Shown here piece by piece: positions 16,501 to 23,882 of a stretch of DNA of 46,560 bases. Under the pieces are notes generated by a model that saw nothing but the letters and a program-made list of their open reading frames with translations, searched no databases and was not told the DNA's origin. Both the position numbers and the translations under genes were made by a program. The stretch is from the sequence record SRR22947727_1365. One strand, written 5' to 3'. Position 1 is the first letter of the stretch. Each line of letters opens with the position of its first letter.

Positions 16501-17151
16501 AGAGAAGGAGTCTATGGATTATTTGATTCCGTTCAATTAAATTACCCAAGCACAATACCTGCTACTGGTAGCTTCCAACATACTCAAAACTGGAACCTAT
16601 ATAGTTCACTAGCAGCAGAAGCAGTAGACGGATATAACACTTATCCATTCTTAGGCTGGTATAACTCAGCCAACAACCTACTTACTACAAGTAGTATGAT
16701 TACTATTACCTCCGGTTCATTTGGCGATACCACAGCATTCTATGCTAGATATACTCCTGCTAAACATTACTTTACGTTTAGAAACTGGTTTAGAGTAACT
16801 CATGATGGTAGTAAGATAACAGATGATGGAACTTATCAATTATTCCAAAAACGAAATAACGAGCAACTAATTACTCAGACAGCTGACAATGTAGTTAATA
16901 GCTACTTCTTAGCAGAAGAGTATAGAGCTTCTAATAACTACTATAAAGCTGCATACTATATAGATGTAGAGATAGATGGTACTTTAGGAACTGGTTATAC
17001 ATATAACTTTACGTTCCCTGAGAATACTAACCCTGATTACCACAGAGCAGTTAATTTTTATACTAACATACTAGATACATATTTATATGAAAGAAACCTA
17101 GATGGTTACCACCATAGTCCTAACACAGGGACTTTACCGGCGACTATCTAA
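13522..17151 (+). CDS. Large baseplate/tail structural protein (gp7-like region; exon 1 is 13522-17121 if the intron splices)
   Basis: 1209 aa; KAKGTNRGLRALINCFGIP wedge-type motif; two F.GW[YF] (InlB/Listeria-Bacteroides-like) repeats near the C-terminus. Confidence 0.75.
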   Translation: MEKVNYIVTKADIGSTSLEEKDAILVGPFSINNTFNDSKDFIDLHIYSPEGTLLKSQLNYKNSTQSTLSAGAGKEGASNLQLEPHKDAIANGFQNGDIRLTYNFFTDLLHLRKTPPRFFIENISGDRTEIQLLTLELTDDELIQSVAEVRSKLENQSYFSEFKVSFGNNDISTGINIDLVEHKEGQSVIVKLLKPLPKKFGKKDICNLLEIVADTTAFDIKLQEVEDKITVPFIKGPNFTAGLDNTANNPTEFYNFDELFSYPVTGSYYELYSLFNEKGAQISIDHSDYGDFIHFSSAEERLRNFKYKLDLIDSYDSNRSTVSSTNYTNLGASGSKEYYDGLIKGIVDNFDHYDRYLYYESGSNSWPKSNKLPPYTNQISSTSEARTWFEKQTELASNFDITNYDVLTNSIPTYLREDKTNEPLLMFVHMLAQHFDNLWIYFKAVSNKYDADNRLDFGISKDLVRSAIESFGINVYNGNKNLENLFASFNGESYTSGNPNEIINHYMQITSGSGLEHLQPMPADNYQKEIYKRIYHNIPLLTKAKGTNRGLRALINCFGIPDNLLTIKQFGGTAIDGNRHFSTQQGVTSSLDKIRLDNSGSLVSGSTLSLYSSVVDRVYKYSDDQHTVEVGFDISDTTNDLIQARVSGSFDYDNYIGDPRDAKQSSYNSLDELAEKIFTDEQEGSIYNYWNGIQKVWQDADWDWNATPFEAFRQTGDFIRLIKFFDNSIFKAVKDFIPARSNVNTGVIIKPHMLNRSKIKQVEVSYEHTIYTGSIKIDPITGSSAGAFDMTPLTPFTTNHLQSVISPLGLVHRNVTDESPRYTGEFSGSLLVASDGELNKGNPFKSQAQPIAQFTLRAFNFSLPIPLACDVILTITKVGEFYRFTPVGPGLVGITYPITVGNSSTPISSSVDYDLYQFITANATPTYPYYFEGWFDGSQETDTLIQTSSVLTIYEDTNTDIDHYFAHFSTEAANRIVYSFTTNYPDGTADGTMREGVYGLFDSVQLNYPSTIPATGSFQHTQNWNLYSSLAAEAVDGYNTYPFLGWYNSANNLLTTSSMITITSGSFGDTTAFYARYTPAKHYFTFRNWFRVTHDGSKITDDGTYQLFQKRNNEQLITQTADNVVNSYFLAEEYRASNNYYKAAYYIDVEIDGTLGTGYTYNFTFPENTNPDYHRAVNFYTNILDTYLYERNLDGYHHSPNTGTLPATI
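17080..17087 (+). promoter_or_regulatory. Late promoter motif TATTTATA, just upstream of the intron 5' splice site
   Basis: Exact motif inside the 3' end of the CDS, ending 34 nt before the splice site. Confidence 0.45.
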
Positions 17152-17387
17152 TAATAAGTCCGATTTAAACTGGGTGAATTGCTGGAAACTCTTTAGAGCT
17201 TTAACTACCAAAGCGTAACAATGTTAAAGATTAGACAATCAGCAGCCAAGCTACAAGCCATCTTGTAGAAGGTTCAGAGACTACTGGAGGGAAAATGGGT
17301 TCCCTTAATAACCAGAATTAGCGCCCAGCAGGAGTAATCCTGATGATATAGTCCGATCTTCATGGAGACATGAAGCTAACATAAATG
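17122..17387 (+). ncRNA. Group I self-splicing intron (IA-like, ORF-less, 266 nt)
   Basis: P AATTGCTGGAAA 17177-88; Q AATCAGCAGCC 17237-47; R GTTCAGAGACTA 17272-83; S ATGATATAGTCC 17343-54; P1 AGTCCT/GGGACT with U.G; P3 CTGGGTG/CGCCCAG; P5a CTTTAAC/GTTAAAG; P6a CTACAAG/CTTGTAG; P7.1; P8 and P9 GNRA hairpins; terminal ...CATAAATG. Confidence 0.93.
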
Positions 17388-17426
17388 GTGATACAGAAAG
17401 CGGAAAGCGGACCTTCGGGCGAGTGA
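17388..17426 (+). CDS. Predicted exon 2 of the 13522 gene (VIQKAESGPSGE*)
   Basis: In frame after ligation CCT^GTG (exon 1 is exactly 1200 codons). Confidence 0.45.
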   Translation: MIQKAESGPSGE

Positions 17427-17493
17427 GTAGGTGAGTAGGTGTATAGGGCTTCGGTCTGGCGGATTAAATACCATTACAAACGAATAAAGTAAG

Positions 17494-18594
17494 ATGACTG
17501 AATTAGAATTCAAGAACACTAATCCTACCTCGTACGACGAGGGTAATGCTAACCTGCTTTACAGCAGTAGTATAGGCACAGGTTCGTATGAACTGCCGGA
17601 AGGGAAGTATGGAGCTTCAGGAAGCTTTAGTTATGATCAAGTATTGAGTAATGCACAAACAGGCGGCAATGGTATGCAGTATTATTTAGCCGATGCATTA
17701 TTCCCTCCTTATAGAGTTTTAGGGCTTACTATTCCTTTTAATAGCAGTAATAATGTTTCACTAGAACAAACATTATCTCAAGTAACAGGAATTAAACTAA
17801 CAATGGGTAATTTGCCTATCGAATTAGTAACAACAGAAATTTCTAAACAGGCAGGTTACTTTTTTATACGTACCGCCCCTACAGATGTATTTTCTTTACC
17901 AGTAGCGATTGATGCAGCAGGAACTCCATTAGATTTTAATGTAGAGTTTATATTTGCTCCATACTTAGCTGATAAGTTTAGTAATAGTGACTTCAACGCA
18001 CTTATAGGAAATGCTAGTACCAACTCAACTAGTACTGTTGCCATGGTAGTTGATAGAGCTGGAGACCAACTTAGACCTACTAATTTAGGAGCAATCATCT
18101 CTCAAACAGCAACAAAAGCATCAGTTCAATACAGTAACTATACTACAACAGGTTGGACTAACGCCAGGTACCATGGGTCTAGTTTAAACAGTGGAAGTAT
18201 ATTCGGAGAGGATCCAGCAATGACTTTAAAAGTATTTCAAGGTTCAGTTCACCCGCTTGATGCTTCTGCTAAAACTTTAATCAACGCAGTAGAACAAAAT
18301 TCTGATGATATTTATTACAACGATAGTAGATTGCCAACAGATTATGTATCTGCTAGTGTGTTATATGTTACATCAAGTACTTTCCCATCAACCCGTCCTG
18401 CTAACTACGGTACTAAGGTAGGTGGAGTAATAAACTATAATAGAGGGAGTACATTATACCAAGCAACAGGAAATAGATTTGTGAGGATTGTTGATAAAAA
18501 AATACTTGCAACTGACATAGCTACAGTATTTACTACTAACGAATTTGGAAATATAATAAAAGCAGTAACCGGTAACAGTGGATCTGCATCATAA
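17494..18594 (+). CDS. Virion structural protein (tail/baseplate region)
   Basis: 366 aa, S/T/G/N-rich, within the structural cluster. Confidence 0.75.
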   Translation: MTELEFKNTNPTSYDEGNANLLYSSSIGTGSYELPEGKYGASGSFSYDQVLSNAQTGGNGMQYYLADALFPPYRVLGLTIPFNSSNNVSLEQTLSQVTGIKLTMGNLPIELVTTEISKQAGYFFIRTAPTDVFSLPVAIDAAGTPLDFNVEFIFAPYLADKFSNSDFNALIGNASTNSTSTVAMVVDRAGDQLRPTNLGAIISQTATKASVQYSNYTTTGWTNARYHGSSLNSGSIFGEDPAMTLKVFQGSVHPLDASAKTLINAVEQNSDDIYYNDSRLPTDYVSASVLYVTSSTFPSTRPANYGTKVGGVINYNRGSTLYQATGNRFVRIVDKKILATDIATVFTTNEFGNIIKAVTGNSGSAS

Positions 18595-22016: not shown

Positions 22017-23882
22017 ATGGCTATTATATTAAGAGCAGACAAAGGAACACCGTTATCGCATACGGAGCTAGATAATAACTTTAGACAGTTATTCTATTCT
22101 GCTTCTTTTTCTGGTACTCAATTAAGTCTCTTCACCTCTGCTTCTTTAGATAATGAAGTAACAATACCTTTTAGTACCCCTTACGGTAAAGAGTATTACG
22201 TACAATATAAAGAAGGAAACGCAACAAGTGGATCTAATTCATCCTTTAGTGGTTCAGCTAACTTTCTATATGATTATAGACAGCTACATTTAAAACATAC
22301 AGGTTCCTTCTCTAATATAGGAGATGCAACAATAGATGGTAACTTAACAGTTACCGGTACAGTTACTGCTCAAGAAATGAGAACAGAGTTTAATAACTCT
22401 TCAGTAGTATTCGAATCAGGCTCTACTAAATTTGGAGACACAGCTGACGATACTCATTCATTTACTGGTAGTTTAGAATTACAAGGAAGCTTAACTAGCT
22501 CTGCAGATATATATATAGCAGACTGGGGAAGTGTTTCTGCATCATTAGCTTCTAATTTATATACAGAAAATGAAGCTTCAGCCTCTCAAGCAGCAGATCA
22601 TACAGCTCTCTCTCAATCTTTAGCAACACGTATTCAATCAGGAAGCGATTCAGTACAAGCTACATACTTAAGAAACACAACAGATACATTAACAGGTGAC
22701 CTAACAGTTACAGGTAGAATAAATGCTACAGAAATAAGCACTACCTATGTCACTTCATCTATACTTTATAACTCAGGCTCAAACATATTTGGAGACGCTG
22801 CAAGTGATATACACATCTTTACAGGTAGTCTTTTAACAGAACAATCTATATCAGGTTCTGACATAAGGATAGATTCTTGGGGGAGTGTATCTTCTTCTTT
22901 GGCTAGTATCAACACAACCGTTGGAGCTCTATCTACAGAGTATAGTGACCTACAGAATATACCATCAAGTATAGTATCTAGTTCAGCTCAAGTAGAAGAA
23001 TTATTACCTTCAGGTATAGTTTCAGCCTCTAGCTTATCATCCGCCGGTCAAGGTGTAATTTCATTAAGTACAAATTCCTCCACTTCTTCTCCAACATTTT
23101 TAGGAGTTAGAACATCAGACTCTCCTACATTTGTAGATTTATCTCTTACAAATTTCTCTTCTGTATCTGCTTCATTAGCAGCATTAACTGCTGGTACAAT
23201 TACAATTAGTAACGATGCAAATAATAGAGTACTAACAGGAGTAGGTAATTCAACTCTTAACGGAGAAGCAGAACTTACATTCGATGGAACTACATTAACT
23301 GTATCAGGAACAGGTATAGGTCCTTTTACTAATACTAATTCTGACATCACAGGCTTAATCGGAGGGTCTACTTTCGGTACATTAATATCAGGAGAAGAAA
23401 ACGCACACGTTGCAATTGGATTAAGAGGAGACGATACAGGAGACTCCTTTGCTATAATCAGCGGTAATGGTGATTACTACTCTGATAATGTATACGATAA
23501 ATTATGCTTCAAGGTAACTAATACAGGTGTTACTACTATAGGAGGTAATCTAACAGTAAACGGAGCAGTTAGTGCCACAGGAGATATTACAGCATACTTT
23601 TCTTCTGATGAAAGATTAAAAGATAATATTGAATTGATTCACAACCCAATTCAAAAAATAAAACAAATAAAAGGTGTATCTTTTGACTGGAACGATCAGT
23701 CAACAAACACCGGCCATGACATAGGAGTAATAGCACAGGATATCGAAAAGGTATTACCGGAGTTAGTTGCAACTAGAGACAATGGCTTTAAAGCAGTACG
23801 TTATGAGAAAATAGTCGCGTTATTAATAGAAGCTGTCAAAGAACAGCAGTCTCAAATTGAGGAGCTAAAAGAAAAGCTCTAG
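22017..23882 (+). CDS. Tail fibre with peptidase S74 intramolecular chaperone domain
   Basis: SDERLKDNI...GVIAQDIEKVLPELV...VRYEKIVALLIEAVKE; internal duplicated module. Confidence 0.9.
   Translation: MAIILRADKGTPLSHTELDNNFRQLFYSASFSGTQLSLFTSASLDNEVTIPFSTPYGKEYYVQYKEGNATSGSNSSFSGSANFLYDYRQLHLKHTGSFSNIGDATIDGNLTVTGTVTAQEMRTEFNNSSVVFESGSTKFGDTADDTHSFTGSLELQGSLTSSADIYIADWGSVSASLASNLYTENEASASQAADHTALSQSLATRIQSGSDSVQATYLRNTTDTLTGDLTVTGRINATEISTTYVTSSILYNSGSNIFGDAASDIHIFTGSLLTEQSISGSDIRIDSWGSVSSSLASINTTVGALSTEYSDLQNIPSSIVSSSAQVEELLPSGIVSASSLSSAGQGVISLSTNSSTSSPTFLGVRTSDSPTFVDLSLTNFSSVSASLAALTAGTITISNDANNRVLTGVGNSTLNGEAELTFDGTTLTVSGTGIGPFTNTNSDITGLIGGSTFGTLISGEENAHVAIGLRGDDTGDSFAIISGNGDYYSDNVYDKLCFKVTNTGVTTIGGNLTVNGAVSATGDITAYFSSDERLKDNIELIHNPIQKIKQIKGVSFDWNDQSTNTGHDIGVIAQDIEKVLPELVATRDNGFKAVRYEKIVALLIEAVKEQQSQIEELKEKL
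22344..22908 (+). repeat. Two diverged ~70-aa repeats in the tail fibre (LTVTG...SGS..FGD...D.H.FTGSL...WGSVS.SLAS)
   Basis: Copies begin at about 22344 and 22701; clear at protein level. Confidence 0.8.

Follow-up and report, generated by a model that had tools for sequence, protein, structure and literature searches.

Phage group I ribozymes are known as mobile introns whose splicing is needed to restore essential genes, and group I chemistry cleaves RNA 3′ of a wobble-paired U. Laboratory permuted intron–exon (PIE) constructs carry the two splice sites in reverse order, and the GIR1 lariat-capping and Clostridioides difficile cyclic di-GMP (c-di-GMP)-dependent group I ribozymes determine how an mRNA downstream of them begins, at its 5′ end or its translation start, and restore no gene. 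Here we describe a group I ribozyme on the + strand of sequence record SRR22947727_1365 (the window: the whole stretch of DNA analysed, 46,560 nucleotides (nt)), which stands between genes for a 1209-amino-acid (aa) and a 366-aa protein among late, structural phage genes whose closest named relative is Flavobacterium phage vB_FspM_immuto (immuto). The ribozyme directly follows a protein domain that we label X, and it belongs to a conserved family that, judged by sequence, appears to have been re-wired so that the recognition strand lies behind the ribozyme.

A natural permuted intron–exon precursor, giving a circular exon-containing RNA, has been described for the ND5-717 group I intron of mushroom-coral mitochondria (Chi et al. 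2019, PMC6545197), the one natural permuted group I case that turned up in print; the accessible part of that paper calls it "the first reported" natural case of group I back-splicing, and it is cited as well in the part of PMC8637638 available to us. As described there, the ND5-717 permutation is set by the transcription start on a circular genome, falls in P8 and serves to assemble the ND5 mRNA by back-splicing (PMC6545197), whereas the window's element would have its break in the P1 loop, a compact 231-nt phage ribozyme and a predicted circle that is short and non-coding. Natural permuted group II ribozymes (Roth et al. 2021, PMC8637638) have, in the text of theirs that we could consult, reversed splice sites less than 100 nt apart and a recurrent associated open reading frame (ORF), as here; circles of 15–86 nt were predicted for them and small circles shown in vitro, and circles of 17–80 nt are predicted for the window's family. 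The same text has them use a branching adenosine instead of guanosine and never abut an ORF, whereas the window's family always follows X. Among circular-RNA systems, the cis-splicing one, as far as its accessible description goes (PMC11417360), is man-made, with the core at the 3′ end and the break at P9.0, whereas here the core is at the 5′ end and only ∼5–6 nt (NGGAU) would be needed at the 3′ end of the insert; the Tetrahymena ribozyme-upstream system is, in the available portion of its report (PMC10415121), engineered, unlike this natural phage element. In the full-text literature searched, with most subscription journals outside its scope, no permuted group I ribozyme from a phage or a bacterium came up.

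The guide helix and the ribozyme core

The S-PM2 psbA intron, a phage subgroup-IA intron, aligns with the window at 76.6% over 17236–17358; both match the Rfam family RF00028 (Intron_gpI), and they share the catalytic core, the P7.1 insertion, the junction before P3 and the position of the guide. Introns of the T4 td and nrdB type are phage subgroup-IA group I introns with this core as well. Such introns split a conserved coding sequence, and the partner of their guide is the exon just before them; the window's element, in contrast, has its pairing partner beyond the omega-G, restores no coding sequence and has no matching junction in ribozyme-less relatives.

With conserved core stretches as exact patterns, two scans of IMG/VR yielded 22 and 59 loci and in all 48 distinct sequences (individual ones are given by L numbers). 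About half of these are ordinary introns that sit in ordinary genes, and several of them carry endonuclease ORFs; the rest form the family of the window's element. Twenty-three distinct members were aligned with MAFFT (alignment A6), leaving out L015 (a near-duplicate of L003), L085 (which resembles L058), L034 (no 5′ part) and L035 (no 3′ part), and family-wide counts below refer to these 23. Every member's ribozyme begins [AG]GUCCN, with the wobble G 6 nt before the junction UUUAAAC plus P3. The same guide spacing is seen in the S-PM2 psbA intron (P1 GAGCGU/GCGCUC), whose sites are consistent with its 212-nt length and its annotated two-piece coding sequence, and in the endonuclease-carrying intron L078 (AUCCGU/GCGGAU). 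The strand complementary to this guide is an NGGAU↓U block (arrow, predicted cut) found 17–80 nt past omega-G across the family and 77 nt past it in the window, just before a conserved UAAC...AUUACA leader. Because the substrate strand of the guide lies downstream of omega-G, the 3′ splice site (omega-G, 17387) precedes the helix of the 5′ splice site (17460–17465).

Across the family, the guide helix is 99.3% paired. Its U-A, C-G and C-G pairs are invariant and its G.U wobble is kept in 23/23, while the adjacent variable pair (A6 columns 13 and 323) is AU in 8, GC in 8, UA in 6, CG in 1 and unpaired in 0, and the pair 3′ of the wobble (columns 8 and 328) is AU in 19, GC in 2 and UA in 1, with a single mismatch. 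Guide pairs switch between near-identical ribozymes (L028 versus L048, L037 versus L057, immuto versus L082), and therefore several independent compensations are implied. We regard the pairing of guide and substrate as shown by this comparative evidence, and from position and wobble we infer that the helix is P1; with a conserved U.G and the guide at its canonical place, it would be the P1 substrate helix by definition.

No upstream partner that covaries with the guide was found in the family, where the best upstream matches amount to 2–4 base pairs; those in L028, L037, L048, L057 and L060 all come from one coding stretch, GGAT↓ATA, and fail to track changes in the guide. A P1 made from the guide and the exon immediately upstream, with a U.G, was thus not recovered, the covarying partner being downstream. 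Two other assignments of the helix were tried and rejected. It is not P10, since the base preceding GGAU is variable, covaries with the guide and hence is not omega-G. Placing the break in the P2 loop, so that P1 would fall within the insert (the RNA between omega-G and the predicted cut), conflicts with the immuto-type inserts of 17–19 nt, which are too short for a P1 hairpin, and, on a by-eye reading, with insert-closing pairs that have their G.U in the wrong orientation.

The core is, by sequence and covariation, an ordinary subgroup-IA-type phage group I fold. The original prediction, made from the letters of the window, had proposed an intact group I ribozyme here and named an Rfam search as a check; RF00028 matches 17075–17375 on the + strand with 89.3 bits (gathering score 50, E 1.3e-21), is the only Rfam family at gathering score in the whole 46.5-kb window, and scores 89–94 bits in relatives. 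The GIR1 lariat-capping and c-di-GMP-II riboswitch-coupled families have no match in the window at that score, and unlike the c-di-GMP-dependent ribozyme of C. difficile the element has no riboswitch upstream and a core that is a complete ordinary group I fold. The core helices (P3, P4, P5/P5a, P6/P6a, P7, P7.1, P8 and P9) fold, with pairing and compensatory changes across the family: 12 helices, including the P3/P7 pseudoknot, are 96.6–100% paired, with 19 pairs changed on both sides. The whole model (P3–P9 plus the guide helix) has 99.2% of its cells paired versus 95.0 ± 0.2 in column shuffles, and the same model with its partners slid has 31–46%. P7.1, foreseen as a group IA trait, is 99–100% paired in CUGG/CCAG and its extension, and two of its pairs changed on both sides. 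The guanosine-binding P7 is invariant; so, in 23/23, is the G at 17387 that had been proposed as omega-G, and omega-G and the tail preceding it vary little if at all, which equals the conservation of the catalytic core. In L027, an ordinary intron, exon 2 likewise comes directly after ...TAATG↓. The expected lack of an endonuclease ORF also holds, the + strand having no ORF of at least 40 aa between 17151 and 17494.

In members whose flanks (300 nt on each side) are only 56–64% identical to those of the window, the ribozyme is 91–96% identical and the insert 40–57%. The difference between ribozyme and flanks points to strong constraint, recent lateral spread of the cassette described below, or both.

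Ordinary members of the same intron clade (L027, L078, L051/L081, L047/L049) served as rulers for the guide position and omega-G; L027 lies in a ribonucleotide-reductase-like gene, and others carry GIY-YIG-like endonuclease ORFs after P9. Six further IMG/VR contigs (L025, L026, L031, L036, L039 and L041) hold a different group I intron with an identical P7–P7.1 stretch, an ordinary upstream P1 and a GNRA-capped P2. They were considered as a second permuted family and rejected on account of that upstream P1 (CGACU↓CAAUG-GGUCG) and P2.

A cassette of domain X and ribozyme

The locus was compared with 12 relatives that keep the neighbouring genes and lack the ribozyme (L091, L095–L100, L102, L104, L105, L107 and L108), none of which has a ribozyme motif within 600 nt. 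In 12/12 the upstream gene is ∼130 residues shorter and ends ...FYARYEI-like, and in 12/12 the ATG of MTELEFKNTNP... (the 366-aa protein) lies within 0–40 nt of the upstream gene, with some stop/start overlaps; in L098–L100 the two genes overlap as ATGA. The window's clade differs from these relatives by one inserted cassette, at ∼16758–17493, in which an in-frame fusion of X is followed by the ribozyme, then a variable insert and finally a short leader. Because the 12 ribozyme-less relatives also end ∼130 residues earlier, this sequence comparison shows that X and ribozyme arrived together, as one cassette between two otherwise abutting genes. The protein comparison runs in parallel: 20 homologues of 1066–1088 residues (P0006, P0007, P0010–P0026) and P0027, of 975 residues, are without X, as are the 1079-aa relatives, and the window-clade protein reads ...FYARYTPAKHYF... 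where its closest X-less homologues stop at ...FYARYEV/EI.

The ribozyme family comprises at least 23 distinct sequences from ∼20 contigs in three gene contexts, and its universal feature, going by these sequences, is the link to the 3′ end of X. In L013, X ends a 534-aa ORF (36% identity) and the ribozyme comes next, at 91.3 bits; X is likewise the end of ∼556–580-aa ORFs in many other contigs. In immuto, gp046 is X as a stand-alone gene of 136 aa, followed by a reduced ribozyme below the Rfam gathering score. The annotated immuto gp045 (L002 3988–4122, a 44-aa 'hypothetical protein') is probably not a gene, because it lies entirely inside that reduced ribozyme. An alignment of X from 16 members has the motifs DDG.Y.L, CYVDV and FF.DII..YLL and then a variable tail of 0–35 residues. 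The AlphaFold2 (AF2) model of X has a predicted local distance difference test score (pLDDT) of 75, with a beta sheet, a C-terminal helix and a disordered tail at 115–129, and a Foldseek search of this model against the PDB gave no match at E ≤ 0.001.

Predicted reaction and rival explanations

Our preferred reading, to which we give a probability of roughly 0.55, is that the element is a group I ribozyme with the permutation in its P1 loop, in which guanosine would cut after U17464 and a second step would circularize 17388–17464. For this reading we infer co-transcription of the two genes, both chemical steps and the biological purpose. In the first step, free guanosine would attack after U17464 and cut the late polycistronic mRNA between the 1209-aa and 366-aa genes, giving a downstream mRNA with a guanosine-tagged, A-rich leader of 30 nt before the ATG at 17494. 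In the second step, the 3′-OH of U17464 would attack the bond after G17387, closing 17388–17464 as a 77-nt circle (joint U17464–G17388) and giving an upstream mRNA that ends in the folded ribozyme at omega-G. The 1209-aa protein would be made from unspliced RNA up to its own stop codon, ending ...NTGTLPATI. The purpose could be to uncouple the two mRNAs, to define their ends, or the circle itself. A wider claim, for which we put the odds somewhat short of even, is that marine Bacteroidota phages including the cultured immuto carry a family of natural group I ribozymes permuted at P1 that would make circles of 17–80 nt by back-splicing and have late polycistronic mRNAs cleave themselves, with a guanosine-tagged 5′ end for the downstream tail-fibre-module mRNA and a 3′ end capped by the ribozyme for the upstream one. 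Such a class would be the first in viruses or bacteria and would amount to a compact, ready-made RNA cyclase with the ribozyme placed first.

The predicted cut lies 25–31 nt from the downstream ATG in 20/20 members with that gene, and the bases that follow it (U↓UAAC) are similar to those with which ordinary relatives begin (CCGU↓UAAC in L051, CCGU↓UAAG in L078). Between the 1209-aa and 366-aa genes, the + strand has no terminator-like site and no promoter-like site better than chance. The insert has two perfect tandem micro-duplications, GAAAGCG twice (17396–17409) and GTGAGTAG twice (17423–17438); the close relative L003 has single copies of both units, so the insert tolerates slippage.

Several observations limit the permuted reading or weigh against it. 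Contigs from the RNA libraries of four runs, which speak neither for nor against splicing or a circle, were only fragments and showed neither joints nor informative ends, and one of these contigs is uncut across 17437–17700, which could come from precursor RNA or DNA carry-over. The downstream partner was chosen by complementarity, and that of L082 was set by hand to the proximal site by homology to immuto. In a mock control, 210 of 1074 arbitrary ribozyme G positions (20%) have a minimal-size partner no more than 160 nt away, as against 22/23 for the real guide; because one mock guide in five also matches, the weight of the case lies with covariation and with the constant place in a conserved GGATTAA block. 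The guide region AAGTCCGA (17156–17163) and the 3′ strand of P7, TAGTCCGA (17348–17355), share the 7-mer AGTCCGA, and this inflates chance matches in the control. The sequences are also related to one another, so that the guide changes perhaps represent at least five independent switches rather than 23. L052 is without the pair 3′ of the wobble. In the window's clade, GGACU (17129–17133) could pair with the guide as well and GACU (17142–17145) fits the P2 of the original prediction; there are alternative folds. In immuto, L082 and L073 the insert is 17–19 nt and is followed by a terminator instead of a gene; freeing a downstream mRNA thus cannot be the general purpose. The 77-nt insert of the window has no stable fold (z = +2.6 versus shuffles, that is, less stable), which fits this reading less well, and no P10-like pairing of the insert start with the 5′ flank of the guide is visible by eye, which may disfavour the second step.

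One rival keeps the same guide helix and has the ribozyme act in cis as an endonuclease only, by the first step or by one-site hydrolysis, with no circle, the insert as a linker and the setting of mRNA ends as the outcome. The lack of visible P10-like pairing suits it, as do an insert that is variable, tolerant of indels and tandem duplications and, in the window, not stably folded, and the immuto-type inserts of 17–19 nt, which seem short for ring closure. Such an enzyme would nevertheless need neither omega-G nor the tail preceding it, and both are conserved like the core; natural permuted group II ribozymes, as far as PMC8637638 could be consulted, have predicted circles down to 15 nt (15–86 nt), so small size alone is no bar. 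We consider the single-cut enzyme unlikely.

A less probable explanation still is that the ribozyme is catalytically idle, that the helix closes the fold, and that the element is a selfish or recombination-promoting block travelling with X between tail-fibre modules. The ribozyme's high identity beside divergent flanking genes fits recent lateral spread or gene conversion, and the block did move as a cassette with X into a new gene and occurs in three gene contexts. An idle element would, however, have no reason to keep the G.U in 23/23, an invariant guanosine-binding P7 and an invariant omega-G, or to compensate every change in the guide, and we hold this explanation to be quite improbable.

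The weakest rival is the original prediction of a conventional intron with P1 AGUCCU/GGGACU, a 5′ site after 17121 and a 3′ site after 17387, whose splicing would replace the last 9 residues of the 1209-aa protein by 12 others or, with omega-G at 17388, put a stop directly after ...HSP. Its arithmetic is right, in that exon 1 is 1200 codons and both tail peptides translate as claimed, and the hairpin (17116–17121 with 17128–17133) exists in the sequence. The hairpin with its U.G is present in the window and in 3/5 relatives of alignment A1 (L003, L004/L005, L007), L006 has a two-sided change from C-G to A-U within it, GACU/AGUC is a possible P2, and ATGGTGATA after P9 is invariant in six sequences. 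As P1 the hairpin nevertheless fails: it is limited to the six closest relatives, its wobble becomes C-G in L006 and L017, and L013, L019, L028 and the other members have no equivalent despite ribozymes 91–96% identical. The two changed bases of L006 also fit another pairing, AUAGUA/UACUAU. In the window this is the 6-base-pair alternative AUAGUC/GACUAU (17114–17119 with 17142–17147), which spans the proposed P1 within coding sequence and has a similar counterpart, AUACG/CGUAU, in L013.

The two supposed tails also behave differently. Five IMG/VR relatives with 89–99% protein identity all have the ribozyme at the same place, and over the nine codons 17122–17148 the close-relative alignment has four third-position synonymous substitutions and one Ile/Val exchange, with an in-frame 3-nt insertion in L006 and one Ala/Gly change in L017. 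The unspliced tail thus behaves as coding and stays ...N(I)TGTLP[AG]T[IV] in the six close relatives, and homologues at 66%, 52% and 50% identity end ...TTGTLPESI, ...VTGSLPQAI and ...VTSTLPQAIP; because the peptide is conserved in homologues this distant, NTGTLPATI belongs to the protein. The tail expected from splicing frameshifts instead, its supposed 3′ exon having 7–10-nt indels among the six close relatives, so that their 'spliced' ends (VIQKAESGPSGE, VILKTENGPSRECLT, VILKADLRASK, VIRKRTFGRVTSV, VIRKRTSGRASSV, VIRKRTPGRASSV) are five different peptides. A junction of the CCT↓GTG type, whose lack in intron-less relatives the original prediction had named as refuting it, is absent in 12/12 ribozyme-less relatives, and in none of these does the gene continue where the ribozyme was thought to interrupt it. 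The proposed end at 17426 matches no boundary that we found, and the variant CCU↓UGA, with omega-G at 17388, was dropped once the 5′ site had failed. On this evidence a conventional intron is very unlikely. The accompanying suggestion that the ribozyme might have a role other than restoring an essential gene, such as mRNA processing, was in our judgement the right direction, because the ribozyme need not restore essential coding sequence.

Gene setting and significance

The features of the locus are collected in Table 1. The guide helix starts with the last A of TAATAATAA.

Table 1. Coordinates of the ribozyme locus in the window
Feature	Position	Strand	Basis or remark
ORF P0001, 1209 aa	13522..17151	+	baseplate/tail-fibre block; closes at its own stop codon
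C-terminal domain X (our label), ∼129 aa	16762..17148	+	directly upstream of the ribozyme in every family member
Hairpin AGUCCU-AACACA-GGGACU, originally proposed as P1	17116..17133	+	variable coding tail; judged not to be the ribozyme P1
Three in-frame stop codons TAATAATAA	17149..17157	+	invariant in six close relatives
Ribozyme body, 231 nt (guide, P3–P9 with P7.1, omega-G)	17157..17387	+	Rfam match, helix counts, identity
Guide W (our label), AGUCCG, wobble G at 17158	17157..17162	+	position, pairing, covariation
P7	17277–17283 with 17349–17354	+	paired in 23 relatives
P9	17358–17375	+	paired in 23 relatives
Insert, 77 nt, predicted circular product	17388..17464	+	omega-G to predicted cleavage site; variable sequence and length
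Substrate strand CGGAU↓U	17460..17465	+	A6 columns 323–328; predicted cut after U17464
A-rich leader UAAAUACCAUUACAA... of the 366-aa gene	17465..17493	+	alignment, distance counts
Downstream ORF Y (our label), 366 aa, MTELEFKNTNP...	17494..18594	+	homologue of immuto gp108

A 603-aa ORF near P0001 matches PHROG baseplate wedge families, and the gene order wedge protein, 1209-aa protein, 366-aa protein is syntenic with immuto gp112–gp108. P0001 itself has no family in PHROGs or Pfam. The 1209-aa ORF shares its reading frame with the 366-aa ORF. Fusion of the two, with G17493 as omega-G, was considered and rejected: an in-frame TAA stands at 17485, L003, L004 and L005 have an A directly before the ATG, and the two genes are separate in immuto and the 12 ribozyme-less relatives. 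Further downstream, a 621-aa ORF (22017–23882) has a C-terminal Peptidase_S74 domain (endosialidase/tail-fibre chaperone) at residues 530–584 and is probably a self-cleaving tail fibre or spike. No tRNA genes were found in the window.

If the predicted chemistry is true, the family would exemplify natural group I back-splicing in viruses or bacteria and be a source of small circular RNAs in phage infection, and it would give a phage a self-contained means of cutting a late polycistronic mRNA a set number of nucleotides from a start codon. Because phage immuto and its host are both, by the GenBank record, in culture, the prediction can be put directly to the test. A natural design of 231 nt, with catalysis all upstream of the RNA to be circularized and only ∼5–6 nt required at the 3′ end of that RNA, would also be of practical interest for circular-RNA production.

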